From a virus: a stretch of 39,378 bases of DNA. Under the pieces are notes generated by a model, which was not told the DNA's origin, searched no databases, and saw only the letters and a program-made list of their open reading frames with translations. A program made the position numbers and the translations under genes. Shown one piece after another: positions 1 through 39,378 of the stretch. Position 1 is the stretch's first letter, and each line of letters begins with the position of its first letter. Location of the stretch: the IMG/VR virus record IMGVR_UViG_3300045988_107209, positions 1 to 39,378 of that record; one strand, written 5' to 3'.

Positions 1-55
1 GTAATTAATGTTCTTGGCTTGCAGCCTTATTTGGATAACCTGATCAAGCTGCGTA
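1..55. repeat. 55-bp terminal direct repeat, identical to 39324..39378. Assembly overlap indicating a circular or circularly permuted genome of about 39323 bp.
   Basis: Direct comparison: gtaattaatgttcttggcttgcagccttatttggataacctgatcaagctgcgta occurs at both ends. Confidence 0.95.
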
Positions 56-4713: not shown

Positions 4714-5250
4714 ATGAAAACTAAAAAACAAACCGAAAAACAAGAACTCAAATACGCTCCTGGCGATAAAGTCGTTTATCACTGTGCAGGAACAGACCAA
4801 TCAGGAACCATCATGTACGTTGACGATACGGACAAAGTAGCACCATACCGAATCGGTGGCATGAATATTCGTGAATCGGATATCGTGGAAAAGGTCATGA
4901 AGAAATGTGGCAGACCGCCCAAAAAGCAAGTGGAAGCTAAAGTCGAAGTTGTGGCCAAAGAGGAGGTTGTAGTCAATGCTGAACCTAAGCAGAAACCAGA
5001 AGAAACTCAGGTGGTTGAATCCATCCAGGAAGAAGAACCACTTCAGCAACCATCGTCAAACCAGGTTCACGAAGAAGAAACGGAAGTTGAGCCAACGCTT
5101 GTTGAGAAATACCAAGCTTTCAAGAGCACGATCAACATGGCGGAATTCAACGACCTAGTCGACTTGGTTACTGCTGACACGAAAAAGATGCGTCAGATGA
5201 TGACCGAATCTATGCAGGCAATCGCGAATGATTGCGGATTGAAAGCGTGA
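4714..5250 (+). CDS. Hypothetical protein with an acidic, Glu/Val-rich centre.
   Basis: ORF with GGAGA upstream. No recognised family. Confidence 0.7.
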
Positions 5251-5254
5251 GCCT

Positions 5255-5764
5255 ATGCAGGATATCAACAGAGTGGTTCTGATTGGCCGATTGACACGTG
5301 ATCCAGAGCTCAGAAAGACGCAAAATGGAACAAGCGTGTGTTCATTTACCTTGGCAGTCAATCGGAGACAGAATCAGGACGGAACACAAGATGCCGACTT
5401 CATCAACTGCGTTGCATGGAATAAGCTGGCCGACAACATCCAACTGTACCAGAAGAAAGGCAATCAGCTAGGAGTTGAAGGCCGAATCAATACACGCTCA
5501 TACGACAACCAGCAAGGACAGAAAGTCTATGTCACAGAAGTTGTTGCAGAGAACGTGCAGTTTTTGACACCTAGAAATGATTTTAACGAGCAAAACACTC
5601 TAGGAGTTACAAATACCTATGGCACTCAAAATTACGCTCAGAATCAATCGTATGGAGCTCAGACAAGGAATCACAATCAATCGAATGTGCAGTATGCGCA
5701 AAGCTTGACTCAACAAGCCGAAGTTGATGCTCTTGAGATTGCATCGGACGACTTGCCTTTCTGA
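5255..5764 (+). CDS. ssb: Single-stranded DNA-binding protein.
   Basis: OB-fold N-terminus [37 protein letters not shown]-rich linker, acidic tail DDLPF. Confidence 0.95.
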
Positions 5765-5799
5765 TGAAGAATGGCGAAGTTTTAAAGGAGAAATCGAGA

Positions 5800-6183
5800 A
5801 TGATGATTTTTGACTGTATAAAGATGCCGACCATCTACGTGAGAGATTACTGCACGAAATGCATTCACATGGTCGGAACAAACGAACACGACAGATTGTA
5901 CCTGGATGATGATGGACACATCCAGTACTTCAACCTGCAGAATGGCTGCGGAACTCCAGATGAATATGATTTCGTTCTAGATCCAGAAGGACATGACCAG
6001 AATAACCTTCCATTCACTGAAGAAGAACAGATCATGTATGGCCTAAGCAATATGGATGCATATTTTGGCGGAGTGGATCTAAAAAAGCATAAAGCCTTAC
6101 TGAAAGAGCAGAGAAAACAAAACGAAGAACTGCCCAAAACACTTGAATGGATTTCTTCAAAAGACGACAAGGAGGAAAAGTAA
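5800..6183 (+). CDS. Hypothetical protein.
   Basis: AAGGAG RBS before ATG 5800. The ORF is open from 5764. Confidence 0.65.
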   Translation: MMIFDCIKMPTIYVRDYCTKCIHMVGTNEHDRLYLDDDGHIQYFNLQNGCGTPDEYDFVLDPEGHDQNNLPFTEEEQIMYGLSNMDAYFGGVDLKKHKALLKEQRKQNEELPKTLEWISSKDDKEEK

Positions 6184-6203
6184 TGAAAGACTCATAACTA
6201 CGC

Positions 6204-6368
6204 ATGATTGAGACAATGCTAAAGAAACAAGATGAGCTGAATTCGGCCATCATGAAAGAGTTTGGTTTGACTACAATTTCAAAGGAACAAATCGACATGG
6301 CCACACTCGACGAGATTGGTGAATTCACTCATGAACTCAAAGGTGACTGGTGCTGGTGGAAGAAGTAG
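6204..6368 (+). pseudogene. N-terminal fragment (54 aa) of a dimeric dUTPase / all-alpha NTP-pyrophosphatase-like gene.
   Basis: MIETMLKKQDELNSAI...LDEIGEFTHELKGDWCWWKK then a stop. Full-length family members are about 160 aa. Confidence 0.45.
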
Positions 6369-6446
6369 TTGTTTTGCAGGTAATGATTTTAGAAAAAGGA
6401 TTTTTGGTTGAATACTTACCGAAGTACATTTATAAGGAGAGTTTAA

Positions 6447-6533
6447 ATGATTGAATTAATTATGTGCCATTTGATTGGCGATTATGTATTGCAAGTAGAT
6501 TTTATTGCAAAGTCAAAAGGAGAAATAAAATGA
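6447..6533 (+). pseudogene. 28-aa N-terminal fragment of a DUF3307-like membrane protein.
   Basis: MIELIMCHLIGDYVLQVDFIAKSK matches the HLIGDYxLQ N-terminal signature. AAGGAG RBS present. Stop overlaps the next start (ATGA). Confidence 0.4.
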
Positions 6534-6913
6534 CTGATTATGTATTTGAAGTAATGAAACAATTTCTGGAATCGTTCATCAATTACAACAACGAGCTTAT
6601 TTTAATTCCAAAAACAAATTTGTACGTTTGCTTACATGATGTAAATACACCCACAGATTTAAAATTTAAATTGTTAGAATATTGTAGCAGAGAATGTACA
6701 TTCGTAGAGAGATATAGCCAAGAGTGGAGAAATAGAAGGTATCAAGATGATATTTTGTTAAGAATCAACAAATGTTTAGGAACAAATTTCACACAAGAAG
6801 AAATGGAATTAGTTTATGACGTATTAGGCAATGGATGTAATCATAAATTAGCAAAAAGGTTCGTTTCAAGTGGTTACGATATGAAGTTGTTGGAGGAAAA
6901 AGAAAATGAATAA
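6530..6913 (+). CDS. Hypothetical protein.
   Basis: ATG 6530 preceded by AAAGGAG. The track ORF extends upstream without an RBS. Confidence 0.7.
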   Translation: MTDYVFEVMKQFLESFINYNNELILIPKTNLYVCLHDVNTPTDLKFKLLEYCSRECTFVERYSQEWRNRRYQDDILLRINKCLGTNFTQEEMELVYDVLGNGCNHKLAKRFVSSGYDMKLLEEKENE

Positions 6914-7241
6914 ATATCAATATGCGTTCGATAAACTGTTAACTCTAGATTCTCCTGATGTTGAACAAATTGAACAATTGAAAGTGCGTGGCGCAGACTA
7001 TTATCACGAGTTACTTGATACTTTATATGATCTGGTCGAAAAAGAAACGGCAACAACACCTGATATTGAAGGTGATGGATATTACAAAGGAGAGCTTGTG
7101 TATGATACATGGATTTGTCCTCGGTGTGGCACTAGATATGAAATCGATTATGACGAATATGAGTATTGTCCGAAGTGTGGCCAACACATTGATTTAGATA
7201 GCTTAGAACAAGAATGTGAGGATACAGAGGATGAAGAATAA
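6906..7241 (+). CDS. Zinc-ribbon protein (CPRCG...CPKCG).
   Basis: Two CPxCG pairs. Acidic C-terminus. Confidence 0.7.
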   Translation: MNKYQYAFDKLLTLDSPDVEQIEQLKVRGADYYHELLDTLYDLVEKETATTPDIEGDGYYKGELVYDTWICPRCGTRYEIDYDEYEYCPKCGQHIDLDSLEQECEDTEDEE

Positions 7242-7257
7242 AAAGGAGAATGAGTAA

Positions 7258-7554
7258 ATGAGTGGTGGAAGTTATAACTATATGTATTGTCGAATAAATG
7301 ATGAATACGTTGATAGAATGTTTGATTCGCAATTAAATAGCATGATGAAAGATTTAGTTGATGTGCTGCATGATTTAGAGTGGTGGCAATCGTGTGATAG
7401 TAGTGAAGAAAGATATCGCGATACAGTCAGAAAATTCAAAAAGAAATGGTTCAGACAAACTAAGATTGATGTGCAAAAGCAAATTGAATCAGAATTTGAA
7501 CGAACAAAGAATGAATTGTTGAAAGAGTTTGAGTATTTGAAGGATGTGGAATGA
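7258..7554 (+). CDS. Hypothetical protein.
   Basis: ORF with RBS AAAGGAG upstream. Confidence 0.7.
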   Translation: MSGGSYNYMYCRINDEYVDRMFDSQLNSMMKDLVDVLHDLEWWQSCDSSEERYRDTVRKFKKKWFRQTKIDVQKQIESEFERTKNELLKEFEYLKDVE

Positions 7555-7838
7555 TGAAAGTTTTTTTAGTCGAAAACATAAATGACATTCATGATGAATT
7601 TGTAAGAGAAGCATGTGCTCGTTTAGATAGAAAGATATGGGATCTGATAGGGTTTAGTACCAGATTTATTTCTATGGAATCATGCTTAGAACAAATTACG
7701 AATTACATCGTCAAATTAGAACGTGAGAATTTTGGGCTAAAAGAGTATAAGAAACACCAAGAAAAAGCGAACGAGAGAAGATATCGCGGTGGTGAGGAAT
7801 CTTGGCACAGAGGGTCAGCTGTCGCAAAGAAGAAGTAG
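7551..7838 (+). CDS. Hypothetical protein.
   Basis: Start overlaps the preceding stop (ATGA), consistent with translational coupling. Confidence 0.65.
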   Translation: MMKVFLVENINDIHDEFVREACARLDRKIWDLIGFSTRFISMESCLEQITNYIVKLERENFGLKEYKKHQEKANERRYRGGEESWHRGSAVAKKK

Positions 7839-7847
7839 GTGGACAAA

Positions 7848-8276
7848 ATGAACAAATTAAAAGTAAATCAAATGTTGAATGATTTGAAGTCAGCAAATTA
7901 TTGCTGCCATCGAATCATTGAGCTAAACGAGGAACTTGAAGTCCTGAATCATAAAATGCTAGGGCTTAGTCATAATCCAATTAGGTTGACAAAGGAGCAG
8001 GAGAAATCAAATGCTCCTATGCCGACCTTTCATGGCTGTTATACAAGTCCTTTAGGAATGATGGAGGAAGAATCTCAAAAGGTGGCAGAAATCAACTATT
8101 ATCGTAGACGTTTGAATGAATGTAAAGTAATAGAACTTCTATCTTTGCGCGATCAGAATATTTTGTTTGATCTATACTTTTGGAATATGAATGCATGGGA
8201 TGTTGCAGAAAAATATGGTTATACAAAGAACGGAATGTACAAACATATCCGCAGAGAAATTGGTAAATTAGTTTAA
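7848..8276 (+). CDS. Sigma-70 region-4-like (ArpU/RinA-type) late transcription regulator.
   Basis: C-terminal HTH LSLRDQNILFDLYFWNMNAWDVAEKYGYTKNGMYKHIRREIGKL. Located at the end of the early genes. Confidence 0.6.
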   Translation: MNKLKVNQMLNDLKSANYCCHRIIELNEELEVLNHKMLGLSHNPIRLTKEQEKSNAPMPTFHGCYTSPLGMMEEESQKVAEINYYRRRLNECKVIELLSLRDQNILFDLYFWNMNAWDVAEKYGYTKNGMYKHIRREIGKLV

Positions 8277-25727: not shown

Positions 25728-28700
25728 ATGGAATACATAAGAATTGCAATTTTAAATCCTTACAATAAGGTTCTAGCGTTTCTAGACAATACTGTGCCTA
25801 ATGCAATGCATTATTTTGATGAAACCTTGCATACTTATTTAAAAGGCTCATCTTATACATTTGAATTTACTACAATGACTGCACATGATGATGCAGTCTT
25901 TTTAGTTGAAGGCAATAAGCTAAGTTTTAAACGTAAAGGTAAAGACTATCATTTAACGATCATGAGTGTCGAAAAAGGTGGTGACACAACAACTGTTACC
26001 GCCTATGGCCTTTGCTTAGAGTTAACGAATGAATATGTGGATGCATATAAAGCAACTAAAGCAATGTCGTTTGAAGAGTATATAAATGCGTATGGATTTG
26101 AAAGATCGTTTATTATCGGTAAAAATGAAGTATCAAATAAGAAGATTACTCATGAATGGACAGGCACAGATACAGTGCTTGCAAGATTATATTCAATCGC
26201 AAATGTATTTGATGCAGAATTAGAGTTTGTTACCGAATTAAATGATGATTATTCATTGAAGAATGTTGTGTTGAATATTTATCGTGCTCATTCAGATTCA
26301 GTTCAAGGAATCGGAAATGATAAACGCAGCACGATATTAAGATATCCAAATGATGTGTATGGAATCACGAAAACAAGTGATATTACTGAATTGTATACGG
26401 CAATCAGACCTACAGGAACAAATGGATTGCAATTGAACTCAATCAGTGGCCGAACTGTTAAGGATTCAAATGGTAATGTTCTTTATAAAGTTAACGGAAA
26501 CAATATACTAGCCCCTCAATCTAGAGACAGATTCCCTTCAACACTAATCACAAATCATTCAAACGATATGTACGCAGTGCAGATATGGTCGTATGAAACT
26601 GAGAATGTTGAAACCTTGTATGGTCAAGCACTAGCACAATTGAAAAAGAATTGTGTCCCTAAAGTTACATACGATGTTGACGCATATATTGATGGTGATA
26701 TTGGTGATACATTCACGATTGAAGATGCAGAGTATAGTCCTACATTGTATTTAGAAGCACGAATCACAGAACAAGAGATTTGTTTTACGGATTCAGAGAA
26801 ATGCAAGACTATTTTTGATAACTTTGAAGAAAAACAATCACAGATTAGTTCCGCTCTGATCAGTGAAATGAACAAGATGATTGAATTGAAAAAAGTTTAT
26901 GAAGGCTCAATCGTATCTTCAAATGGAGTTCTTTTTAAAAATGATTCAGATAGCACTAAATTGACTGCATTGGTAAAGGATGATGGGGTTGATATTACAT
27001 CTAAGTATTCAATTGTTTGGTATAAAGATGATGTGCAAATATCAATAAATCAAGCCATTACAATCAATGCCTCAGACCTATCAGAAAAGGCCGTATATCG
27101 ATTTAAAGCAATGAGCGGTGAAATACTCAAAGCAAGTGCAGAAGTCACTGTAATGCGTTTACAAGACGGTCAGAATGGAACTAGTGCTTATGTACATATT
27201 GCCTATGCCAATAGTTCAGATGGTCGTGTTGATTTTAGTTTAACAGACTCAAATCGTAAATTTATTGGTCAGTATTCTGATTCAAAACAGTATGGTTCTG
27301 ATGACCCAACCAAATACAGATGGTCAACAATTAAAGGTGAAGATGGCCAAAGTTTTGTAAGTGCCGAGGAACAATTCTATTATTCGACTTCTCAAACCGA
27401 ATTAGTCGGTGGTGAGTGGTTTGTTGGTAATGTAGTTTATCAAAGTGATAAGTTCCTTTGGAAAAGATGGAAGTGTACGTATGCTAATCCTAGTGAAATC
27501 AAGTATACGAAAGCTATTTTTGACAACACTTGGAATGAAATTGAAGCAAAGATTGGTGTAATCCATACACAAGTATCGGAAGCTAACAATCAATCTAAAG
27601 AAGCAGTTGATAAGGCAACACAAGCTCAGACGGATGCAAGTAAAGCGTATGAATTGGCTAACGCTGCTAACACTCAATCGAGTGAAGCTAAGCAACTAGC
27701 ACAAGATGCGAACACAAGCACTGGTAAAGCTCAAGAACAAATTGATGCAATTAAAGGTGATATCACTGATTCAAAGCAACAAATTCAAGACGCAGTTGAT
27801 AAGGCAAATGCCAACGCTAGTGAAATTGCTACTGTAAAAGAAACGTATGCTACAAAAGTTGATTTAACTAATGAATCAAAATCTATTCATGCAGATGTTA
27901 CAACTGAAATTGAAAAGAAAGTGGGTGAGTTGTCGACTACTGTATCAGAAACTTATGCTTCTAAGAGTGATTTAACAACACTTGAAGGAAGTATGGACAC
28001 GCAGTTTAAACAAACTGCAGATACAATATCAACTCATGCTAGTTCTATTGAAAAGCTACAATCAGATACAACTCAAGCTCAGAAAGATATTACTGATGCG
28101 ACAAAGAAAGCAACGGATGCTCAAACTCAAGCGGATAAAGCTTTAGGCAATGCTCAGAGTGCTCAAGCTTTAGCAGACCAAGCTAAACAAAAAGCAGACA
28201 GCGCTCAGGAAAATTTAGACAATGCTAACAAAGAGTTAGCAGATGCGAAAAAAAATCTAGAATCGGTGACTGGCAGAGTTGATTCGAGTGAAAAAGAGAT
28301 AAGTGATGCAAAGACTAGGCTATCAAAGGCAGAGTCAGATGTCACACAAGCTCAGAAAGATGCAATTACTGCTCAAAACAACGCTCAAACTGCAATCAAC
28401 AATGCTAAGACTGCACAATCAACTGCAGATACTGCTAAAGCTAATGCAGAGCAAGCACAGAAGGATTTGAACGATTTAACAAATCGTGTTACTAAAACTG
28501 AAACTGCAATTAAACAGAATGCAGATAAAATCACGTTACAAGCTAAATCGGTCACTGAAATAAAAGAAATTGCGAGCAGTGCAAACAGTAATGCATCAAG
28601 TGCATTAAATAAAGCCAATAGTCTAACTGATAGAGCTAACAGTGGTGAATTTAATGGACGTGGTGTTAAGAGCACTAAAGTAGAATATCAAGCCTCTACT

Positions 28701-29780
28701 TCAGGTACTTCAACTCCGACTGGTACATGGTCAAGCACACCGCCAAAGACTACTGCGGATAAACCATATTTATGGACAAGGACAATAATTACTTATAGTG
28801 ATAACACTCAGAGTACTTCATATTCTGTTGGAAGTACTCCTGAAGGGATTGTTGTTGGTGGTAGGAATTTATTAATGCAATATATACGAGCTGGTTATAT
28901 GACAACCAAGATAAATGATTTATCAATAAAGGTAGGTACAGGTGTAGATGATACGTATTTCTACTTGAGAGCACATCAAAAGCTAATTAAAGGTGAGACA
29001 TATACTATATCATGTGATGCTTCGAATGTACCGAGTGGATGCAATTGGTCTTTTGGTGTAACGCTTCAAGCTGGGACATGGCAATTATATATTAATAAGA
29101 ATGGACGATGTTATGCTACTGGAACTCCGAATGCGGATATATTACCAGGAACTGAGTTTATACTTGATGATTATTACGGAAAACCATCTACTGCAACAAA
29201 CATCATTTTGAGTAATTTCAAATTAGAAAAAGGCAACAAAGCCACTGACTGGACTCCTGCACCTGAAGATGTAGACAATGCAATAAATGAAGAACGTACC
29301 ACGCGACAGTCTGCAATTGAGACTAAGGCAAATGAAATTACATCTAAGGTTTCTGAAACTTATGTATCAAATTCGGCGTTTGAACATTATCAAAATACTG
29401 TATCAAGTCAGTTTACTCAAACGAAAAAGGACTTCACATGGTCAATCAATCAATCGGTAACTGATGCAAAGAATGAGATGAATGGTCAAATTGGCAGTGT
29501 AAATTGGCGTGTTGATGGTTTGATGGAAACTACCGATAATGTAAACAATTACATGAGCTTTGACAAAGATGGATTAACTCTAGGTAAATCAGACGGTGCG
29601 TTTAAGACAAAAATCACGAATCAAGAATGGTCGATTCAAAAGAACGGTGCAAAAGTAACGTATATAAACGATCAAACAATGTACATTACAGATGGTCAAT
29701 TTACGCAGTCTTTAAAAATCGGTAACTTTGGCTTTGTTCCAAGAGCTAATGGCTCATTGGACTTTAAAAAGATAAGGTAG
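25728..29780 (+). CDS. Tail-associated protein (Tal) / tail spike with a long coiled coil.
   Basis: 1350 aa, after Dit. Ala/Gln/Lys-rich coiled coil at about 27.56-28.65 kb. Beta-rich C-terminal domain. Confidence 0.75.
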   Translation: MEYIRIAILNPYNKVLAFLDNTVPNAMHYFDETLHTYLKGSSYTFEFTTMTAHDDAVFLVEGNKLSFKRKGKDYHLTIMSVEKGGDTTTVTAYGLCLELTNEYVDAYKATKAMSFEEYINAYGFERSFIIGKNEVSNKKITHEWTGTDTVLARLYSIANVFDAELEFVTELNDDYSLKNVVLNIYRAHSDSVQGIGNDKRSTILRYPNDVYGITKTSDITELYTAIRPTGTNGLQLNSISGRTVKDSNGNVLYKVNGNNILAPQSRDRFPSTLITNHSNDMYAVQIWSYETENVETLYGQALAQLKKNCVPKVTYDVDAYIDGDIGDTFTIEDAEYSPTLYLEARITEQEICFTDSEKCKTIFDNFEEKQSQISSALISEMNKMIELKKVYEGSIVSSNGVLFKNDSDSTKLTALVKDDGVDITSKYSIVWYKDDVQISINQAITINASDLSEKAVYRFKAMSGEILKASAEVTVMRLQDGQNGTSAYVHIAYANSSDGRVDFSLTDSNRKFIGQYSDSKQYGSDDPTKYRWSTIKGEDGQSFVSAEEQFYYSTSQTELVGGEWFVGNVVYQSDKFLWKRWKCTYANPSEIKYTKAIFDNTWNEIEAKIGVIHTQVSEANNQSKEAVDKATQAQTDASKAYELANAANTQSSEAKQLAQDANTSTGKAQEQIDAIKGDITDSKQQIQDAVDKANANASEIATVKETYATKVDLTNESKSIHADVTTEIEKKVGELSTTVSETYASKSDLTTLEGSMDTQFKQTADTISTHASSIEKLQSDTTQAQKDITDATKKATDAQTQADKALGNAQSAQALADQAKQKADSAQENLDNANKELADAKKNLESVTGRVDSSEKEISDAKTRLSKAESDVTQAQKDAITAQNNAQTAINNAKTAQSTADTAKANAEQAQKDLNDLTNRVTKTETAIKQNADKITLQAKSVTEIKEIASSANSNASSALNKANSLTDRANSGEFNGRGVKSTKVEYQASTSGTSTPTGTWSSTPPKTTADKPYLWTRTIITYSDNTQSTSYSVGSTPEGIVVGGRNLLMQYIRAGYMTTKINDLSIKVGTGVDDTYFYLRAHQKLIKGETYTISCDASNVPSGCNWSFGVTLQAGTWQLYINKNGRCYATGTPNADILPGTEFILDDYYGKPSTATNIILSNFKLEKGNKATDWTPAPEDVDNAINEERTTRQSAIETKANEITSKVSETYVSNSAFEHYQNTVSSQFTQTKKDFTWSINQSVTDAKNEMNGQIGSVNWRVDGLMETTDNVNNYMSFDKDGLTLGKSDGAFKTKITNQEWSIQKNGAKVTYINDQTMYITDGQFTQSLKIGNFGFVPRANGSLDFKKIR

Positions 29781-29788
29781 GTGATTGA

Positions 29789-31753
29789 ATGGCACAATTC
29801 AGTGGAAGTATAGGAATAAGCACAGGGCAAACAGACAAGTATTCGTTATTGTTGGATGTTTCAGAGAAATCTTATTCAATTGAAAATAACACATCTAAAG
29901 TTGAATGGTGGGTTGGTATTCGTTCAAATACTGCATACCATAATCACTATGGGTTGTCAGAAACTTATGTAGTTAATATCGATGGCACTGTAGTACACAA
30001 TGCAGTACATACACCTACAGTCAACAGTGGTGCTACTGTATGGGTAGCAAGTGGAACAACTACTGTATCACACAATGCAGATGGTTCTAAATCTATATCA
30101 GTCAGTGCATCGTTTGACAATGCAGACAGAGGAACATATTTACCAACGACAGGATCATGCAGTGGTAGTTTAAAGTTAACGACAATACCACGTGCAACTA
30201 CTCCTTCTATTGATAAACCGAGTTTAGATTGTGGTAGTGCAATTAAGATTAGTGGTACAAGTGCATCAAGCAACTTTTCGCATAAAGTTTATGTAACTTG
30301 GAATGGAACAAAAACACAAATAGGAACAATAGCTAGTGGTACAACAACCCCTAGCTTTTCTTATACCATTCCGACAGATTGGGAAAAGAATATTCCTGAT
30401 TCAACAAGTGGTATTGCTACATTTACATTAGAAACAATCAGTGGTTCAACGTCAGTTGGTTCTAAAACAGTAAATGCGACTATTAAAGTTAGAAGTAGTA
30501 TTGTTCCAACGATTGGAACTGTTGGTATTTCTGATACAAATTCAATTTGTGCAGGAATTGGACAATATGTTCAGAATCAATCGAAATTAAAATTCTCGAT
30601 TGCAACAAGTGGTAATCAAGGCTCAACGATCACATCAGTATCGACTAAATTCAATGGCCAAACATACAGTGGTAGCACATTTACAACTCAAGCGATTCAA
30701 AACAGTGGTACGTTAACTTACACAATCACAGTTACAGATTCACGTGGTCGTACTGCTACTAAGAGTGGTTCGGTATCTGTAGTTGCATACAATCCACCTA
30801 GTCTTACAAATATAAGTGCAAAGCGTGCTAACTCAGGCTATACAGTAGATGAATCAAGTGGTACGTATGCATTGCTACACTTCAAAGTTGGATTTACTAG
30901 TTTAAGTAATAAGAATGTAACATCATTCTATATTCAGTATCGAGCAAGCGGTGCTAGTTCGTGGACAAAAATTAATTCATGGGCTAATAACTACACTTTG
31001 GAACAAGATTACAAAGCAGGTAATTTATTTACCTCAACAACTACAACATATGAAATTGCATTCGGTGTTAAAGATAAATTTATGAGCGATTACTCATGGC
31101 AAATAGTTACAGTTACACCAACTTATACATTGATTAACTTTGGCAAAGATGGAAAATCATTAACTTTTTTCGGTCAAGATGGTAATAATGCTAACCGATT
31201 AACTGTTAATGGCGATTTAGTATCAAATAAATATAAATTCAGTTCAGTCAGTGAGAATACTTCATCAACTCATGTGTTGGTGGAGAATGGTAATGAAATT
31301 CAATATCGTGATTGGAATAAATTAGTTAATTCAATCAAGAGTGCGATGTATCCAGTAGGTTCAGTTTATATCACTTACAACAATGTCAACCCTGGCACAT
31401 TTTTAGGTGGAATATGGGAAAGATTCGGGCAAGGTAGAACTTTGGTCGGAGAAGGTACTGGGAATGATGGTAGTACAAGTATGTCCTTTACTGCGAATTC
31501 AACTGACGGAAAATACAAGAATACTCACTATCACGTAACTTCATTTGGTTGGGATGGAGATTATTTTTATGCAGGTAGACCAGACGGAGCAGTTAATAAT
31601 GCATACGACCGAACCTCAGTAATTCCAAATGGATATGGAATTCAAACTAGTTCTTTTATATCAAATCAAGTGCGATTGAATTGGACTGATAACTGTACTA
31701 TTGATAATGTACAACCATACATAGTTGTTTTCTTTTGGAGAAGGACCGCATAA
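29789..31753 (+). CDS. Receptor-binding tail fibre protein: DUF859-like N-terminus and tail-collar-like C-terminus. This is the expressed copy in the shufflon.
   Basis: MAQFSGSIGISTGQTDKYSLLLDVSEKSYSIENNTSKVEWW. C-terminus MYPVGSVYITYNNVNPGTFLGGIWERFGQGRTLVG...QPYIVVFFWRRTA. Confidence 0.8.
   Translation: MAQFSGSIGISTGQTDKYSLLLDVSEKSYSIENNTSKVEWWVGIRSNTAYHNHYGLSETYVVNIDGTVVHNAVHTPTVNSGATVWVASGTTTVSHNADGSKSISVSASFDNADRGTYLPTTGSCSGSLKLTTIPRATTPSIDKPSLDCGSAIKISGTSASSNFSHKVYVTWNGTKTQIGTIASGTTTPSFSYTIPTDWEKNIPDSTSGIATFTLETISGSTSVGSKTVNATIKVRSSIVPTIGTVGISDTNSICAGIGQYVQNQSKLKFSIATSGNQGSTITSVSTKFNGQTYSGSTFTTQAIQNSGTLTYTITVTDSRGRTATKSGSVSVVAYNPPSLTNISAKRANSGYTVDESSGTYALLHFKVGFTSLSNKNVTSFYIQYRASGASSWTKINSWANNYTLEQDYKAGNLFTSTTTTYEIAFGVKDKFMSDYSWQIVTVTPTYTLINFGKDGKSLTFFGQDGNNANRLTVNGDLVSNKYKFSSVSENTSSTHVLVENGNEIQYRDWNKLVNSIKSAMYPVGSVYITYNNVNPGTFLGGIWERFGQGRTLVGEGTGNDGSTSMSFTANSTDGKYKNTHYHVTSFGWDGDYFYAGRPDGAVNNAYDRTSVIPNGYGIQTSSFISNQVRLNWTDNCTIDNVQPYIVVFFWRRTA
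31479..31494 (+). repeat. Putative recombination site S0 (GTATGTCCTTTACTGC) inside the expressed fibre gene.
   Basis: Same 16-mer (GTATGTCNTTTACKGC) found inverted at three cassette starts. Lies exactly at the homology boundary. Confidence 0.75.
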
Positions 31754-31754
31754 A

Positions 31755-32009
31755 TTAAGCCGTCCTTTTCCAAAAATGTACTGTAATGTAAGGTTGAATG
31801 TTGTTATGAAATGCATCTTCACCTGTTTTAGATACATTAAATCCATATGCATTCGAGCCTTGAGTGATTGGTTTATTTTCTGCAAAAGGAGAACTTGTCT
31901 GTTTTGTTGAACCACCTCTAGCATATAATTTATGGTCATGACTTGGCATCTCATCTATAGTTAACTTATGTTTATATTCACCGCCAGTGCTATTGGCAGT
32001 AAATGACAT
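31755..32009 (-). other. Silent alternative fibre C-terminal cassette 1 (84 aa, canonical tail-collar tip).
   Basis: MSFTANSTGGEYKHKLTIDEMPSHDH...HNNIQPYITVHFWKRTA. No RBS. Its stop is 1 nt from the fibre gene stop. Confidence 0.8.
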
Positions 32010-32011
32010 AC
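31996..32011 (-). repeat. Putative recombination site S1.
   Basis: Minus strand reads GTATGTCATTTACTGC. Confidence 0.75.
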
Positions 32012-32233
32012 CTATGCAGTCCTACGCCAAAAGTAGACTGTAATGTATGGTTGCACTAAAGATACTTTTGCACTATGTTCTCTGCTACCATTTCCTACAT
32101 CAGAACTACGAACAATAGTACGTTCGGTGTAATATGTCGGGCCGTCGTTCTTTCTTAAACCATATTGTTTGTCCGAGCTATTAAGAACATCCGAGTAATA
32201 TTTACCACCTGTAGAATTCGCAGTAAAAGACAT
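32012..32233 (-). other. Silent alternative fibre C-terminal cassette 2 (73 aa).
   Basis: MSFTANSTGGKYYSD...LVQPYITVYFWRRTA. Separated from cassette 1 by 2 nt. No RBS. Confidence 0.8.
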
Positions 32234-32235
32234 AC
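32220..32235 (-). repeat. Putative recombination site S2.
   Basis: Minus strand reads GTATGTCTTTTACTGC. Identity to S0 extends through GCGAATTC. Confidence 0.75.
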
Positions 32236-32240
32236 CTTAA

Positions 32241-32441
32241 CTATTTAATTCTGTACCAAAAGTAGACAGTGATATAAGGTTGCAATAATGGTATCTTCGT
32301 TTTCATGTTTTTATTGTGATCATGAACACCCATTTGATTACCATTGCTATTAAGAAGTGCACCGTAATATATGTAACCTATATCATTACGTACCATAGAA
32401 TGAATGTACTCTCCGCCCGTGTCATTAGCCGTAAAAGACAT
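32241..32441 (-). other. Silent alternative fibre C-terminal cassette 3 (66 aa).
   Basis: MSFTANDTGGEYIHS...LLQPYITVYFWYRIK. The track ORF's upstream extension overlaps the recombinase 3' end and is not needed. Confidence 0.75.
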
Positions 32442-32443
32442 AC
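32428..32443 (-). repeat. Putative recombination site S3.
   Basis: Minus strand reads GTATGTCTTTTACGGC. Lies 5 nt from the recombinase stop codon. Confidence 0.7.
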
Positions 32444-32448
32444 ATTGA

Positions 32449-33342
32449 CTATTTGTAATAATCACAAAGCAGCTCAACACATTTTCGCTTTAATTCCATT
32501 TGTGGACGTACATAAATGTTCATTGTGATTGATACGTTGGAGTGGCCAAGCAATTCACTAAGTGATTTGTAGTCACATCCGCACTCAATGCATCTAGTGG
32601 CGAATGTATGTCGTAATGCGTGGAATTTGAGATGTGGTAGCTCAAGTTCTTTGAGGACTCTATTGTAGTAAAGTCTGTATTTGTTAGGTTCTATCGGCTT
32701 ATTTCGATTCGTTAATACATAGTTATCTGCATCACCTTGTAGAAGGATTGCGTAGTGCATTATCCATGTATTTAACGGAATCATTCGAGTACTGGAACGT
32801 GATTTAGGTGGTGTTATTGAAAGATGGCTACCATCTTCTTTGGTGTAGGTTCGTATCATGGTTTTGCTTATATTTAATAACTTGGTTTGAGTGTTTATAT
32901 CAGACCATTTTAAAGCGCACAGTTCACCTATGCGTATTCCTGTATGGATGCATAAAAGGATTCCAAAGTTTTTACAATTAATCTCAGATTGGAGGTGATT
33001 AATCAATGTTATTTGATTTTCTTTTTCAAAAATCTCTACCGCCTTAGAAGGATGGTATGGTAGTTGAATATCGACTTTGAATGGAAGTGTAAATTTTAAA
33101 ACCTGAATAATGTCTTTGGCATATTTGAATGATATACCACCTTTTCCGTCTTTACGGCCATTTTCAAGTTTTTGAAGAATAAACTCTTGTAAAATATCGT
33201 TATTCAAATCTTCAATCTGATAATTGCCTAGTTTTGGCATGATGTGATTGTGGATCACATTACAATAATTTGTGTAAGTGCTGTATTTTAGATAGATTTT
33301 CTTTTCCTTTAACCAGGATGTTAATTTGTCAGAATATAGCAT
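32449..33342 (-). CDS. Tyrosine site-specific recombinase (XerC/D/Rci-like size); candidate shufflon invertase.
   Basis: SAM-like N-terminal domain. Catalytic signature TGIRIGEL (R), HALRHTFAT (HxxR), LGHSNVSITMNIYV (H...Y). Confidence 0.9.
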   Translation of the reverse strand: MLYSDKLTSWLKEKKIYLKYSTYTNYCNVIHNHIMPKLGNYQIEDLNNDILQEFILQKLENGRKDGKGGISFKYAKDIIQVLKFTLPFKVDIQLPYHPSKAVEIFEKENQITLINHLQSEINCKNFGILLCIHTGIRIGELCALKWSDINTQTKLLNISKTMIRTYTKEDGSHLSITPPKSRSSTRMIPLNTWIMHYAILLQGDADNYVLTNRNKPIEPNKYRLYYNRVLKELELPHLKFHALRHTFATRCIECGCDYKSLSELLGHSNVSITMNIYVRPQMELKRKCVELLCDYYK

Positions 33343-33635: not shown

Positions 33636-33739
33636 AATTAATCGACCTTGTGAAGTCGTAAAACTCACACATGGTACAGAGACTGCACTTTAGCTCGTTC
33701 AAGCGGTCTTTTTTTGTGCCAAAAAAGAAGGAATTATAT

Positions 33740-33964
33740 ATGAATTTTGCATCTGCGTTTATTTCGATGACGCGTGGCCACAAGGTGGCGCGTAGTCACT
33801 GGAGTGGATATTGGCATATCGTCGATGGAATCATCATGATCCATACGAAAGATGGTATTGATTTAAAATTAACGGATTCAGACGATATTGTATATACAAT
33901 CAGCAATTGTGCATGTGATGACTGGCACATTGTTGACAACTATGGAGTTAGCAAGGAGAGGTAG
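33740..33964 (+). CDS. DUF2829-like protein (the family that includes the anti-Thoeris protein Tad2).
   Basis: MNFASAFISMTRGHKVARSHWSG...DDWHIV matches the M-F-x-A...G-x-KV-x-R-x-x-W-x-G ... DW-x-IV pattern. Confidence 0.5.
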   Translation: MNFASAFISMTRGHKVARSHWSGYWHIVDGIIMIHTKDGIDLKLTDSDDIVYTISNCACDDWHIVDNYGVSKER

Positions 33965-35777: not shown

Positions 35778-35906
35778 AATTTAATAAAATAAGTGTCAAA
35801 AACTCAAATATTGACACAAAACAGTACAAAATGTACGTAAAATGATTCAAAATATCAAAAAATGACACAAAAGTTGAACTAAACTATATTTTTAATGACT
35901 AAATCC

Positions 35907-35938
35907 GAGCCTACGTGTAATGCGTAGGTTCTTTTTTT
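35907..35938 (+). terminator. Rho-independent terminator ending the late operon.
   Basis: GAGCCTACG-TGTAATG-CGTAGGTTC followed by T7. Confidence 0.75.
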
Positions 35939-36020
35939 GTTGTGAAATTATAATAAAATTGAGATATAAATTATGTCTTGATTATATCTTGAAAAAAATT
36001 TAATATTTTAAACAAAACTA

Positions 36021-36049
36021 TTGAATTACGATGTTTAATATGTTAAAAT
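36021..36049 (+). promoter_or_regulatory. Near-consensus sigma-70 promoter with an extended -10 element.
   Basis: TTGAAT, 17-nt spacer ending TGt, then TAAAAT. Lies about 30 nt upstream of the xre-like gene. Confidence 0.65.
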
Positions 36050-36080
36050 CCAAGTGTACAAAAGAAAGGTGGTGATTGAG

Positions 36081-36281
36081 ATGGGATTCAAAATTAAGGA
36101 ATTGCGAGAAAAAGAAAATTTATCTCAGGCCGAATTGGCACAAAAATCAGGTGTATCACAAAATTTAATTGCCCGTTTAGAGAGTGGAGCTTTAACGAAT
36201 ACCACTACAGATACTCTTCTTAAAATATCTAAAGCATTAAATGTGAAAGTTGAGCAAATTTTTTTTACAGATAATGTTTAA
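36081..36281 (+). CDS. XRE-family HTH regulator (Cro/repressor-like, 66 aa).
   Basis: IKELREKENLSQAELAQKSGVSQNLIARLESG. Confidence 0.85.
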   Translation: MGFKIKELREKENLSQAELAQKSGVSQNLIARLESGALTNTTTDTLLKISKALNVKVEQIFFTDNV

Positions 36282-36330
36282 CATTTGCTGATAGTACTAC
36301 CAACGACTACCACAGAAATAAAACATAAGA

Positions 36331-36348
36331 CCGGTGCGGTACTTGAGG
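36331..36348 (+). repeat. Site D: third copy of the B-type ~20-nt motif (ccggtgcggtacttgagg).
   Basis: 15/18 identity to the reverse complement of 38468..38490. Lies immediately upstream of the RBS of the next ORF. Confidence 0.7.
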
Positions 36349-36368
36349 ATGGAGGAAAGGAAAAACAA

Positions 36369-36587
36369 ATGGAAGAAAATAAAGTAAAAAGTCTTATTGA
36401 CGCTTTAGATCTAGTGAACGAACAAATGGTACAGAAACAAGAAATAAGCACAATAGCCGTTGCCGTCAAGCTTGAGGGTTTGGATCAGGTAAACGAGGAA
36501 CTTGACAAAATGCTTATTAAATTAGAAAAAGCCAACTCATTGGCAGATGAATTGGCTTCAAAAATTAAAGACTTATGTTCAAAGTAA
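36369..36587 (+). CDS. Hypothetical coiled-coil protein.
   Basis: ATG 36369 preceded by GGAGGAAAGG. The upstream part of the track ORF has no RBS. Confidence 0.55.
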   Translation: MEENKVKSLIDALDLVNEQMVQKQEISTIAVAVKLEGLDQVNEELDKMLIKLEKANSLADELASKIKDLCSK

Positions 36588-36777
36588 TCTCAGATTTGCA
36601 ATGTGGGCAGACATTGCTACCTGAAGAAGCTTTGAAGGTATTGCCGCATTTAGGGCACTTTACGTCGATGCTTAGATTGTTGACTTGACTAGCAAGGTTT
36701 CTCTCTAAAGATTTTTGTAAGTCACGCTCAAGTCTACGCATATCTGATTTACTACCGATATTGTACTTTTTAGTCAT
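36565..36777 (-). CDS. Zinc-ribbon protein (CPKCG...CPHC).
   Basis: Strong RBS GGAAGGAGGTG. Two CPxC pairs. Confidence 0.75.
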   Translation of the reverse strand: MTKKYNIGSKSDMRRLERDLQKSLERNLASQVNNLSIDVKCPKCGNTFKASSGSNVCPHCKSEITLNISL

Positions 36778-36802
36778 TTATTACACCTCCTTCCAAAAGG
36801 AG

Positions 36803-36811
36803 ATTGTATCA
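36803..36811 (-). promoter_or_regulatory. Extended -10 promoter element TGaTACAAT (minus strand).
   Basis: Lies about 12 nt upstream of the RBS. Palindrome GTATGCTTGCAGCATAC (36831..36847) sits in the -35 zone. Confidence 0.45.
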
Positions 36812-36858
36812 CATAGAAAATCAGAAAAAGTATGCTTGCAGCATACAAAGGAGAATAT

Positions 36859-36984
36859 ATGCAGATTACAGTAATTCGAAAATCAGACAATTCAGTCATC
36901 ACTCGTATCTTTGAGGATGAAGAAGGAATCAAAGAGATCACGGATGATGATTATGAGGTCTTAATTGAAAAAGACTCGAATTAA
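36859..36984 (+). CDS. Small acidic protein (41 aa).
   Basis: RBS AAAGGAG. Followed by hairpin GACTCG-AATTAA-CGAGTC. Confidence 0.45.
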   Translation: MQITVIRKSDNSVITRIFEDEEGIKEITDDDYEVLIEKDSN

Positions 36985-36991
36985 CGAGTCC

Positions 36992-37246
36992 CTATTTATC
37001 TAGATTGTTGTTAGTGCTTTTATCTGGATTACTACGAATGAACTTAGTGCCATCAGAGTTCTTTACACCGTGATACCCATTTACTTCGCCTCTCACAGCT
37101 TTGTTGTAAGCTTGGGTATTCGTGTATACAACGCCGTTGATACTCACTCTGTTGTTTAGCCCAGTAGAAGTTTCTGAAACAACTTTAACTCTAGCTCTTG
37201 CCAGTTTGATCGTGTCGTTCTTTGTGTCAATGATCATAGGCAACAC
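36992..37246 (-). CDS. DUF3892-like protein.
   Basis: C-terminal GTKFIRSNPDKSTNNNLDK resembles the DUF3892 signature (YxRTxPDxxxxDNL). The start could be 37246 or 37237. Confidence 0.5.
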   Translation of the reverse strand: MLPMIIDTKNDTIKLARARVKVVSETSTGLNNRVSINGVVYTNTQAYNKAVRGEVNGYHGVKNSDGTKFIRSNPDKSTNNNLDK

Positions 37247-37345
37247 AGTCGGAATCCATTATCTGAACAAACATGATAAGGACTGGCAAAATATGCTGAA
37301 TAGAATACTGGATGACCTAAAAAAGCATACAAAGGGGGAATGAAC

Positions 37346-37543
37346 ATGAGCTTAAAAGTAGAACCCAAACAGGTTGATATTACAATCGACAACTATCAAA
37401 GAATCGAAAAGTTAAGCCAGGAGCTTCATGAAATGTTCGTAGACGGAGGCTTTAATATGGCTTTGGTAGAACAAAAAGAAGCTGAACTTCACAATGAAAT
37501 CCAGCTTTTAAAGAAAGTAAAGATTAGTGTAAGCCTTACTTAA
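37346..37543 (+). CDS. Hypothetical small protein.
   Basis: RBS AGGGGGAA before ATG 37346. Confidence 0.55.
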   Translation: MSLKVEPKQVDITIDNYQRIEKLSQELHEMFVDGGFNMALVEQKEAELHNEIQLLKKVKISVSLT

Positions 37544-38051
37544 CATTGATGCTAATGCCACCATCAGGTTCACGAATGACTTCTAAATTTGATTCTCCTG
37601 GGACATCTGGAAAAACATTTATAGTGTTTAGACTTGAAAAGTCTGTGTTTTTGATAAAACTACTAAGTTCACTTTTTGAAGTTTCGATACCATCTAGGTC
37701 CAGGCTATAAGACATGATACGAATATTTGAAATATCAAAAGGGTAGTTTGCTTTATATTCACAGTCCTGAATGATGATGTACGGTCTACCAAGGCCCATT
37801 CGGTAGCCTAGTTCAAGAAAGACATTAGGATTGTGACCCGTGATATCTACGATTACAAGGTCATCATCTTTTAAGTGGTTGAATATGTCATCTGTTAAAA
37901 CTGAAGTCTTAGCAATTTTATCTACTCGTATAGGTTCAAAATCTAATTCTGAGCATACTGGTTTCAACAGGTGCTTCAAAACTTGATCGGAATGAATACG
38001 AACTTCTGATCCTTTATCACCTATAGGAGTAACAAAAAAGCATTTACGCAT
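37536..38051 (-). CDS. Nucleoside 2-deoxyribosyltransferase-like / TIR-like Rossmannoid protein (171 aa).
   Basis: CFFVTPIG ... DDLVIVDITGHNPNVFLELGYRMGLGRPYIII. Strong RBS GGAAGGAGGTG before ATG 38051. Confidence 0.5.
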   Translation of the reverse strand: MRKCFFVTPIGDKGSEVRIHSDQVLKHLLKPVCSELDFEPIRVDKIAKTSVLTDDIFNHLKDDDLVIVDITGHNPNVFLELGYRMGLGRPYIIIQDCEYKANYPFDISNIRIMSYSLDLDGIETSKSELSSFIKNTDFSSLNTINVFPDVPGESNLEVIREPDGGISINVK

Positions 38052-38075
38052 ATAAATCACCTCCTTCCAGGATAG

Positions 38076-38084
38076 ATAGTATCA
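38076..38084 (-). promoter_or_regulatory. Extended -10 promoter element TGaTACTAT (minus strand).
   Basis: Same RBS/-10 block as at 36784..36811. Confidence 0.45.
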
Positions 38085-38121
38085 TTGAATTTTCAAAAGT
38101 GCACATAAACAAAAAAATTCT

Positions 38122-38143
38122 CTGGGCAGTACTTGAGGTGTCA
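38122..38143. repeat. Left arm of inverted repeat B (ctgggcagtacttgaggtgtca).
   Basis: Reverse complement of 38468..38490 with 2 transition mismatches and one 1-nt bulge. Confidence 0.9.
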
Positions 38144-38467
38144 TTTCAAGCATAGAAAGGAATAGATTCCATTAGTGCTCATTGCTATCGTCAAGAATCA
38201 TGGTTCTAGCGCTACCTACAAACATTCGCAGAATCTAGATTCTAAAACATGAGGTCCCCTTATCATACTGACATGGCAAAATCTGAATGACATGAAAATA
38301 TCTCTTGTTCGCAAATCAAAAGAAATAGACGCTGTTTTGTTTTTATCATAAAAGAATGAGGTGAAGAATCGCCTCCAAAACTAATTATTGCTCTAATATC
38401 TAAAAATTAATCGGACAAAAGTGTTCGCACACAAAACAGTGACCTAATCATGTTGATAAGTAAGAAG

Positions 38468-38490
38468 TGGCACCTCAAGTGCTGCACCAG
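38468..38490. repeat. Right arm of inverted repeat B (tggcacctcaagtgctgcaccag).
   Basis: Pairs with 38122..38143. Both mismatches would be G-U pairs in a plus-strand RNA. Confidence 0.9.
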
Positions 38491-38536
38491 AACATAGTAG
38501 AACATAGTAGAACGCAGTAGAAAGGAGTAGAACATG
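38489..38536 (+). repeat. 4.8 tandem copies of a 10-nt unit (AGAACATAGT, AGAACATAGT, AGAACGCAGT, AGAAAGGAGT, AGAACATG).
   Basis: Read directly from the sequence. The fourth unit supplies the RBS and the fifth the ATG of the next gene. Confidence 0.9.
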
Positions 38537-38845
38537 CAAGAATTATTACCTATTGGAAGTGTCGTGGTTCTTAAAGAAGGAACAAAGAAGTTGATGATTA
38601 TCGGAAGACTTCAAGCAAATCCTAAAACAAAGAATCTCTACGACTATGCAGGATGTCCATGGCCAGAAGGCTATATGGATAAGGAACATTGCTACGTATT
38701 CAATCACGATGATATTGATCTTCTTTATTATCTAGGAATGCAGGATATAGAAGAGTTCAATTTCAGATTCAAATTGGATGAAGCAATCGAAAAAATAGAA
38801 AGTGAAGGATATAAACATGCCAAGAGCAAACACATCAGCCAATAA
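38534..38845 (+). CDS. DUF4176-like protein.
   Basis: LLPIGSVVVLKEGTKKLMIIGR...YDYAGCPWPEGY...YVFNHDDIDLLYYLG. Confidence 0.6.
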   Translation: MQELLPIGSVVVLKEGTKKLMIIGRLQANPKTKNLYDYAGCPWPEGYMDKEHCYVFNHDDIDLLYYLGMQDIEEFNFRFKLDEAIEKIESEGYKHAKSKHISQ

Positions 38846-39113
38846 AGCAACAGCTGCGAAAAAAAGAACTGTAAAAAAAACAGATGAAATCAAAGAACAA
38901 CAATGTGAATTGGCTCCGTTTGCAAACAATTCACATGAAACAGAGTATACAAGAATGATGCACAGATACTCTGAACTGGATAAAAGAGAGAAGGCAGTGC
39001 GCAGAAAGCAGCGTTTCGCAAACTGGATGTTATTTGCGAGTGTTGTGTTAGTGATTGGATGTATGATCGCTACTGCGTTTGTATGTACGACCATCCAGTC
39101 TATTCGACTGTAG
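38817..39113 (+). CDS. Small basic protein with a C-terminal transmembrane helix.
   Basis: RBS GAAGGA before ATG 38817. Transmembrane segment WMLFASVVLVIGCMIATAFVC. Confidence 0.6.
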   Translation: MPRANTSANKATAAKKRTVKKTDEIKEQQCELAPFANNSHETEYTRMMHRYSELDKREKAVRRKQRFANWMLFASVVLVIGCMIATAFVCTTIQSIRL

Positions 39114-39128
39114 AAAGGAGTTCAGCTT

Positions 39129-39378
39129 ATGAAGAATATTAGAACAGTCTCTTGTATGGAATATGATGCAGAAGTTGAGGACAAGATCCAGAAGCTTACA
39201 AAGTATGCATATATCACGCAGGGAGACTTGGCAGAGATTATTGGATGTTGCAGCGCAACGGTTAAGACTGAGTTGAATAAGCTTGGCGTTCAATCCAATT
39301 GTTTCGGATGGCCAACCGCAAAGGTAATTAATGTTCTTGGCTTGCAGCCTTATTTGGATAACCTGATCAAGCTGCGTA
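39129..39378 (+). CDS. 5' part of the wrap-around HTH-like ORF (continues at 56..72 of the circular molecule).
   Basis: RBS AAAGGAG before ATG 39129. The ORF is still open at the window end and continues through the overlap. Confidence 0.6.
   Translation, partial: MKNIRTVSCMEYDAEVEDKIQKLTKYAYITQGDLAEIIGCCSATVKTELNKLGVQSNCFGWPTAKVINVLGLQPYLDNLIKLR
39324..39378. repeat. Second copy of the 55-bp terminal overlap.
   Basis: Identical to 1..55. Confidence 0.95.

Follow-up and report, generated by a model that had tools for sequence, protein, structure and literature searches.

Within a viral genome of 39,378 nt (IMG/VR record IMGVR_UViG_3300045988_107209), analysed here over its whole length and called the window below, the end of the tail-fibre gene faces an array of three silent, inverted gene fragments and a gene for a 297-aa tyrosine recombinase. 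We read this locus, with a probability of roughly 0.85, as a phage-encoded multiple-inversion switch (shufflon) for the C-terminal tip of a tail-fibre/baseplate protein. The recombinase would recognise a short site consisting of an invariant asymmetric 7-bp core, GTATGTC, and imperfect inverted arms, with one copy of the site lying in the fibre reading frame and an inverted copy at the head of every promoterless cassette. If the fibre copy and any opposite copy exchange strands within GTATGTC, the intervening DNA would be inverted and a different cassette brought in frame with the constant 563 residues of the fibre. Of a T4 gp10_C-like domain, the constant part would provide the first third, and the cassette the variable middle and the closing strands QPYIxVxFWRR. 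As inversion produces an in-frame fusion, a population could therefore make four tips, of 90, 84, 73 and 66 aa, which presumably differ in receptor specificity and would alter host range.

The fibre open reading frame (ORF; 29789..31753, plus strand) encodes 654 aa. Its constant part, aa 1-563 (29789..31478, plus strand), comprises DUF859 and the first ~50 positions of Gp10_C, and it is followed by the expressed tip cassette (31481..31753, plus strand), which encodes 90 aa and the stop codon and belongs to the cassette type that we designate T6. Silent T6 copies are present in other loci, and many 90-aa entries of the protein database, recorded as 'genes', are likewise silent versions of this expressed tip, for example P0005 (94% identity, 134 members). 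The fibre gene meets the array tail to tail. The three silent cassettes, all on the minus strand, are of type T15 (31755..32009; 84 aa), T8 (32012..32233; 73 aa) and T10 (32241..32441; 66 aa from the ATG, or 79 aa from an upstream GTG), and their ORFs are spaced 2 and 7 nt apart. All of the tip peptides begin with MSFTAN(S/D)T(G/D)G and end with QPYI(T/V)V(Y/H/F)FW(K/R/Y)R. An earlier note, made from the letters of the window, had proposed this arrangement, and its coordinates and strands for ORFs and sites, together with the 2-7-nt spacing, agree with the ORF list and the raw sequence; the shared N- and C-terminal motifs that it described recur with small variants (T(G/D)G and QPYI(T/V)V(Y/H/F)), and its count of one forward and three inverted site copies at the cassette starts was likewise confirmed (4 found, 0.02 expected).

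All four cassette starts carry GTATGTCNTTTAC(T/G)GC. With one mismatch allowed, the 16-mer GTATGTCNTTTACKGC has exactly four copies in the 39,378 nt, where chance would give 0.02; none of 100 shuffled sequences reached four copies, and no fifth copy was found in the window at the same tolerance. Site A (GTATGTCCTTTACTGC, 31479..31494) lies forward on the plus strand, with the crossover within GTATGTC at 31479..31485. The other three are inverted, on the minus strand: site B (GTATGTCATTTACTGC, 31996..32011), which forms the edge of the segment inverted in the related contig L013 (related loci and contigs carry L numbers throughout); site C (GTATGTCTTTTACTGC, 32220..32235); and site D (GTATGTCTTTTACGGC, 32428..32443), which is separated by 5 nt from the stop codon of the recombinase and takes part in the reciprocal junction of contig L069. 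The whole invertible region, that is the maximal segment from site A to site D, spans 31479..32443. A repeat finder returned 45-47-nt inverted repeats, 72-80% complementary, that begin with the site cores, and further repeats of 27-44 nt formed by the 3' ends of the cassettes. In a logo of 160 unique sites, GTATGTC is invariant, with a-g-t-a-a-A-t to its left and N-T-T-T-A-C-t to its right. The site would thus be made of imperfect 7-bp inverted arms (AGTAAAT / NTTTACT) around an asymmetric 7-bp spacer. Arms around an asymmetric spacer are the classical core layout of tyrosine recombinases, and in the sfx site of plasmid R64, too, asymmetric arms surround a 7-bp spacer core. The crossover mapped from the L069 junctions falls in the 7-bp spacer. 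The site is also translated, as S-M-S-F-T, and it supplies the ATG of each cassette.

Inversion itself is seen in naturally occurring isomers. Looking up the 84-aa and 73-aa cassettes as exact proteins led to L069/L071 (COST17-1_SAMEA4545414 scaffold_2573), a contig from sample SAMEA4545414, which is a sibling of SAMEA4545415, the sample behind the window (ENA contig COST17-1_SAMEA4545415 scaffold_423, 39,378 nt). L069 is collinear with window positions 27067..31517 at 98.97% identity and inverted relative to 31471..32451 at 98.98% identity, and its fibre of 630 aa consists of the constant part and the 66-aa T10 tip. It is the exact product of an inversion between the first and the last sites, with the internal sites unaltered. 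In the window, the constant part passes through GTATGTC into CTTTACTGCGAATTC of T6, and at the recombinase flank ATAGTCAAT is joined through GTATGTC to TTTTACGGC of T10; in L069, the constant part passes through GTATGTC into TTTTACGGC of T10, and ATAGTCAAT is joined through GTATGTC to CTTTACTGCGAATTC of T6 beside the recombinase. The exchange is conservative and reciprocal, and it lies within the 7-nt GTATGTC.

Further arrangements were found among related contigs. Compared with the window by blastn, L013 has 31479..32011 inverted at 98.5% identity between flanks that are collinear at ~92%. Junctions of the constant part with T8 and T15 were sought by a pattern scan of related contigs. In L152 the constant part is joined to T8, followed by T10, T6, T15 in the opposite orientation and the recombinase; this order is two inversions away from that of the window, and the cassettes are 95.5-98.3% identical to the window's. 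The scan also found the constant part joined to T15 in L153 and L161, to T8 in L158 and to a T10-like tip in L157. In all, T15 is expressed in L013, L161 and L153, T8 in L152, L158, L033 and L034, and T10 in L069, with T10-type tips in the expressed position also in L031 and L157. Taking L069 together with the isomers from the pattern scan, all four of the window's tips have therefore been found expressed somewhere. The in-frame tip swap by inversion between the forward site and an inverted one, as put forward in the earlier note, gains support from L069, L013, L152, L153, L158 and L161, and the comparison with related contigs that it had suggested did yield alternative junctions.

Contig ends fall within the shufflon or at its edge in at least 10 cases, L054-L057 and L069 among them; this count excludes L007, L030 and L038, for which the stored locus is shorter than the contig. 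Such ends are circumstantial evidence, of the sort expected of mixed populations. Switching is presumably frequent within one population. In L007 the 127-nt recombinase-proximal flank is present twice in inverted orientation (4400-4526 and 5176-5302; 95% identity), one copy joined to T8 and the other to T10, and the duplication probably arose when the assembly followed a path through a mixed population.

The locus belongs to a large family. IMG/VR contains 52 loci with a recombinase at 65-98% identity to that of the window. By locating the 13-nt core in each locus, translating onward and clustering the products at 80% identity, we obtained 81-82 cassette types over ~60 related contigs, with 1-8 sites per locus. 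Read from the recombinase side, the array of the window is +T10 +T8 +T15 -T6, the last being expressed, and comparable arrays are +T10 +T15 -T6 in L047, +T10 +T6 -T15 in L013, +T5 +T8 -T6 in L011 and +T10 +T6 -T8 -T3 in L018; that of L049, +T6 -T8 -T5, is the exact product of an outer-site inversion of L011. All 38 complete loci have exactly one site fused to a long ORF. In 14 of these 38 an internal silent cassette is flipped, as multi-segment inversion predicts, and 14 of the 31 recurrent tip types are seen both expressed and silent.

Several variants of the array deserve mention. In L025-L029 and L048 the cassettes form convergent pairs (+ - + -) bounded by inverted sites, with up to eight sites per locus, and the back-to-back sites are spaced by 31-nt gaps. 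One sub-lineage (L036:7985, L037:7009 and L045:4693) has a constant part of just 65-73 codons before the expressed site, and here the shufflon appears to act on a stand-alone Gp10_C protein of ~150 aa, not on a 650-aa fusion. L039, L050 and L051 look like decayed, frozen shufflons: their recombinase matches are limited to the N-terminal 216, 153 and 68 residues, respectively, and few sites are left. The 67-aa type T0 occurs eight times (L001, L002, L005, L008, L009, L016, L032 and L052), in all cases silent and each time as the nearest cassette to the recombinase. T10, which is related to T0, is usually nearest to the recombinase too, yet it is expressed in L031 and L069.

Between L013 and L047, and between the window and L013, cassette DNA is 98.3-98.5% identical and the flanks are 88-93% identical; between the window and L152, the corresponding figures are 95.5-98.3% for the cassettes and 85% for the constant part of the fibre. 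That cassette DNA is more conserved than its flanks suggests that phage lineages exchange cassette arrays, with the joins at the sites or close to them. A tentative extension, which we regard as possible but doubtful, is that co-infecting or co-resident phages swap whole tip cassettes through the conserved site, in the manner of an integron-style shared library.

The silent cassettes appear to be preserved, yet without translation of their own. Among the related loci, 114 of 121 silent cassettes are intact, i.e. 55-115-aa ORFs that end in the conserved motif. A GGAG, GAGG or AGGA motif at the distance of a ribosome-binding site (RBS) precedes 8 of the 121, compared with 19 of 27 real genes of the window.

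In Pfam, the fibre matches DUF859 (PF05895) at aa 17-505 and Gp10_C (PF21939) at aa 518-653, and it is the latter that replaces the 'tail-collar' label of the earlier note; in PHROGs the fibre falls into phrog_372, tail protein (4e-80). All three small ORFs match distal Gp10_C alone, the 84-aa cassette corresponding to profile positions 53-139, so that none could make the whole domain by itself. An AlphaFold2 model of fibre aa 500-654, built from an alignment of 47 sequences, is confident for the constant half (predicted local distance difference test (pLDDT) 84-93 at model residues 11-50) and also for the last strands. Its variable middle is poor, the mean pLDDT being 63.5, and the model was used for the constant core and the gp10_C assignment, never to draw conclusions on the receptor. 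Searched with Foldseek, the model matches the C-terminal domain of T4 gp10 (2fkk, 5iv5), and given this fold the crossover, at aa 565, falls within a single folded domain. In the model, a variable insert appears to be framed by the constant part and the conserved QPYIxVxFWRR strands. Where the expressed and the convergent silent tip meet, their 3' ends form a 42-nt imperfect palindrome (31712..31796; 71% complementary) centred on both stop codons, which could act in the fibre mRNA as a terminator-like hairpin, whichever tip is expressed.

The recombinase (32449..33342, minus strand; 297 aa, with its stop codon 5 nt from site D) is armless: its Pfam content is PF00589 and PF14659, with no arm-binding domain. 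It has the full set of catalytic residues (R137, K180, H241, R244, H267 and Y277), so that the earlier note was right about the R/K/HxxR/H/Y signature as well as about the size and position of the enzyme. Membership of PF00589 rules out a serine invertase, and the missing arm domain and the location of every putative site copy inside the shufflon speak against a lambda-type integrase. Resolvase-type matches were absent among the scanned ORFs of the window, a scan outside which most of its small ORFs lay. Thirteen NCBIfam models match the recombinase and none at its equivalog cut-off, the best being generic Xer and Int models with XerA at the top (72.7 bits versus 220); no Rci-type model is among the 13. 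The FimB/FimE models PRK09870 and PRK09871 give 25.5 and 18.7 bits, below their cut-offs of 221 and 222. The nearest solved relatives are Tn1549 Int and XerA, that is integrases and Xer proteins. On these comparisons, the locus stands outside the Rci, FimB/E and serine-invertase families.

In 52 viral loci and 5 loci from genomes the recombinase gene is the neighbour of the cassettes; in every related locus it adjoins the first site, an adjacency that is kept at protein identities as low as 61%. RecT served to retrieve the early regions of related phages. Relatives whose recombinase is 93-95% identical carry a separate integrase of 359-374 aa between the lysin and the early genes, represented by a 374-aa protein with Arm-DNA-bind_4 (PF14657) in L106 (same contig as L021) and a 359-aa protein in L094 (same contig as L019); an S24/helix-turn-helix (HTH) CI-like repressor is found in L086 (same contig as L015). 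The separate integrases are 24-26% identical to the shufflon recombinase. Since relatives that share the recombinase possess a separate integrase, the best reading of the 297-aa enzyme is that of a dedicated invertase, and this is most likely its role. The separate integrases also led us to reject, as the main reading, the recombinase as the phage's integrase, and with it the idea, raised in the earlier note, that it acts solely in integration.

More distant relatives of the recombinase (33-39% identity) occupy invertase-like contexts. In L061, a Bacteroidales metagenome-assembled genome (MAG; 5555-8105), such a relative lies between 750-nt inverted paralogous genes for outer-membrane proteins/lipoproteins. 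In three gut phage contigs (L065:1576-2996, L066:1063-2502 and L067:4578-5988) it is bracketed by 24-29-nt inverted repeats that are perfect or near-perfect (97-100%). These arrangements look like self-inverting recombinase cassettes or surface-protein switches.

Several points weigh against a shufflon driven by its own recombinase and acting on a receptor-binding tip. L069 differs from the window by ~1% and stems from another sample. The basis on which the 297-aa recombinase would catalyse the inversion is its adjacency and conservation, and that on which the fibre would bind a receptor is its place after a Tal-like gene and its domain content; searched against the PDB by sequence, the fibre gave chance-level Ig-like matches only, with no solved homologue of the full fibre. 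The silent sites B, C and D are direct repeats of one another, which puts deletion between them at issue. Lastly, this complete circular genome has a single recombinase.

The alternative that survives best, improbable as we judge it, is that the inversions are rare accidents of homologous recombination between the 45-nt inverted repeats, for instance by RecE/RecT, and that the recombinase is unrelated to them or is an integrase. Although the window encodes both RecE and RecT and no other integrase, and the isomers stem from different samples, with a sequence divergence of at least 1%, accidents of this kind fit poorly with an exchange that maps to the same invariant 7-nt core between differing flanks, in surroundings of 72-80% identity only over 45 nt. 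They also leave aside the recombinase-site adjacency kept across ~57 loci, the separate integrase of the relatives, the intactness of the silent cassettes and the breaks of at least 10 contigs in the shufflon or at its edge, which mixed populations predict.

We consider it very unlikely that the recombinase has a dual role in the window phage, combining shufflon inversion with genome integration/excision or multimer resolution. An enzyme that is the single recombinase of a complete circular genome, whose relatives reside in integrated prophages (L058) and whose closest solved structures are integrases and Xer proteins, could be suspected of such a role, but it lacks an arm-binding domain and the window has no fifth site for it, even at one mismatch. 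Moreover, where the enzyme of a relative is 93-95% identical, the very region that is replaced in the window holds a separate integrase and repressor module, so that loss of the lysogeny module by this phage is the simpler reading. It is scarcely credible that the three small ORFs are translated on their own, into fibre chaperones or decoys for instance: each has an ATG start and gene callers annotate them, but that ATG belongs to the recombination site, a Shine-Dalgarno-like motif precedes so few of the cassettes, the products would be just the last two thirds of a Gp10_C domain, and identical cassettes stand in frame with the fibre in other genomes. The earlier note had itself raised this last possibility, and it fails on the missing RBS and the missing first half of the domain.

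The phage in which we see the shufflon appears, from its relatives, to be a human-gut phage of Holdemanella (Erysipelotrichaceae). Relatives of the recombinase in genomes come from a Holdemanella MAG (96% identity), Floccifex (75%), an Erysipelotrichaceae bacterium (69% and 65%) and the isolate 'Firmicutes bacterium M10-2' (61%); in a taxonomy look-up, Holdemanella belongs to Bacillota, Erysipelotrichaceae. A megablast of the locus against INPHARED phages gave zero matches, and the best tblastn match of the recombinase in INPHARED is 38% identical, which leaves no close annotated phage there. Looked up as exact proteins, the recombinase and the 90-aa tip, the latter taken as a free ORF, returned the source contig alone, or nothing.

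The termini of the window share a 55-nt direct repeat (1..55 and 39324..39378), and the assembly of ~39.3 kb is therefore circular and complete. Its non-structural ORFs of at least 250 aa encode RecE, RecT, a replisome organiser and two proteins without a Pfam match, and no second integrase was found when these ORFs of the complete circular genome were scanned. The region from the lysin to the early genes (35778..39378) contains a 75-aa XRE-type HTH protein and small ORFs only; it has neither an integrase nor a CI/S24 repressor, genes that L094, L106 and L086 carry there, and the window has other DNA in place of this module. Prophage relatives exist, as in L058, which lies in a 597-kb scaffold adjoining the host SpoU and AI-2E genes. 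The window phage may thus have become non-integrating or virulent while retaining its shufflon, and a switch kept in a phage without an integrase or CI module may act outside classical lysogeny. Adjoining the recombinase, a 97-aa ORF (33671..33964, plus strand) has a weak, sub-threshold match to the Tad2-like (Thoeris anti-defence 2) domain (E = 7e-4; 20.5 bits versus a cut-off of 25).

Systems of this kind are already known. In Bifidobacterium breve/longum prophages, the Rin shufflon combines Rv cassettes with a constant Rc gene and with rix sites of 11 bp, and it was reported as the first case of a tyrosine DNA invertase encoded by a phage (Mavrich et al., 2018; PMC6109161); Eggerthella lenta prophages have the same Rin layout (2022; PMC8778435). 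The earlier note had known of no tyrosine-recombinase multi-cassette fibre shufflon in a Gram-positive siphovirus; given the published Rin shufflon, novelty at the level of kind does not hold. Rin and the present locus both combine a phage-encoded armless XerD-like tyrosine recombinase with adjoining tandem promoterless cassettes for the C-terminus of a receptor-binding protein (RBP), a gene for the constant RBP N-terminus, a short asymmetric repeat at the cassette starts and inversions between genomes. This likeness concerns layout and descriptions, not a comparison of recombinase sequences, and no Bifidobacterium phage is among the matches listed, or among the ten commonest organism names, in the INPHARED tblastn search with the recombinase. 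A separate canonical integrase lies elsewhere in the genome of Rin phages; here it is found in relatives (L094, L106) and is absent from the window. The two systems differ in host, Actinomycetota for Rin and Bacillota (Erysipelotrichaceae) here; in site, the 11-bp TTCCCTAACCC in Rin and GTATGTCNTTTAC here; and in target, a TP901-1-like RBP head in Rin and a T4 gp10_C-like domain split mid-domain here. Unlike that of Rin, the site is here translated (S-M-S-F-T) and gives each cassette its ATG.

A second comparison is offered by BV01-like phages of Phocaeicola vulgatus, for which the accessible text of a 2026 preprint (PMC13596623) describes a recombinase-flanked multi-cassette region over the distal end of a tail-fibre gene, with all configurations detected in reads. 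As far as that text goes, a multi-cassette switch of the distal tail fibre in a human-gut temperate phage is common to both, and the class of the BV01 recombinase is not stated in it. The same text gives a Bacteroidota host, a 10-bp motif (TGGGAGAACT) and three cassettes that yield six isoforms, all unlike the present locus. We did not find the BV01 motif TGGGAGAACT in those Bacteroidales relatives of the recombinase that were examined.

With the R64/IncI1 shufflon (Rci, sfx, pilV), the locus has in common a tyrosine recombinase, multiple inversions and the swapping of an adhesin's C-terminal tip, and the convergent cassette pairs of L025-L029 and L048 repeat its layout. However, R64 acts on a conjugative-pilus gene of a plasmid through 19-bp sfx sites, whereas here the target is a virion protein, the site is unrelated and no Rci model is among the 13 NCBIfam matches. 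The parallel to Rci/sfx drawn in the earlier note therefore stands for the working mode, but not for membership of the family. The Gin (Mu), Cin (P1) and Min (p15B) systems also swap a fibre C-terminus by inversion and change host range, and Min too is multi-segment, but they use serine invertases with an enhancer and Fis in place of a tyrosine recombinase, a contrast that the note had drawn correctly. The hsdS shufflons of Type I restriction-modification systems, with tyrosine recombinases next to them, occur in Firmicutes, Mycoplasma and Bacteroides. They likewise place an armless tyrosine recombinase beside silent promoterless half-gene cassettes that feed an expressed specificity gene; unlike the virion protein here, the hsdS target is the DNA-specificity subunit of a host defence system. 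A survey of programmed inversions (PMC9881135) treats these hsdS shufflons and also names phage tail fibre genes as targets. In the open-access papers that could be searched in full text, we found no description of such a system for Holdemanella, Erysipelotrichaceae or any Bacillota phage, and none of a DUF859/Gp10_C target for a shufflon. What is first seen here, within a known kind of system, is its presence in Bacillota phages, its T4 gp10_C-like target and its different site.

The finding extends tyrosine-recombinase RBP shufflons from phages of Actinomycetota and Bacteroidota to those of Bacillota, here Holdemanella and further Erysipelotrichaceae; these bacteria are common in the human gut, and their phages are almost unstudied. 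The shufflon family is abundant in gut metagenomes, with 52 loci in IMG/VR and 5 in genomes. As a phage can have up to 8 sites, and at least 81 tip types exist, host-range predictions, the definition of viral operational taxonomic units and assemblies would be unstable at this locus. With the crossover mapped to 7 bp and a recombinase of 297 aa, the system would make a compact and experimentally tractable model, and it is a possible tool for programmable RBP tip swapping in Gram-positive phages.

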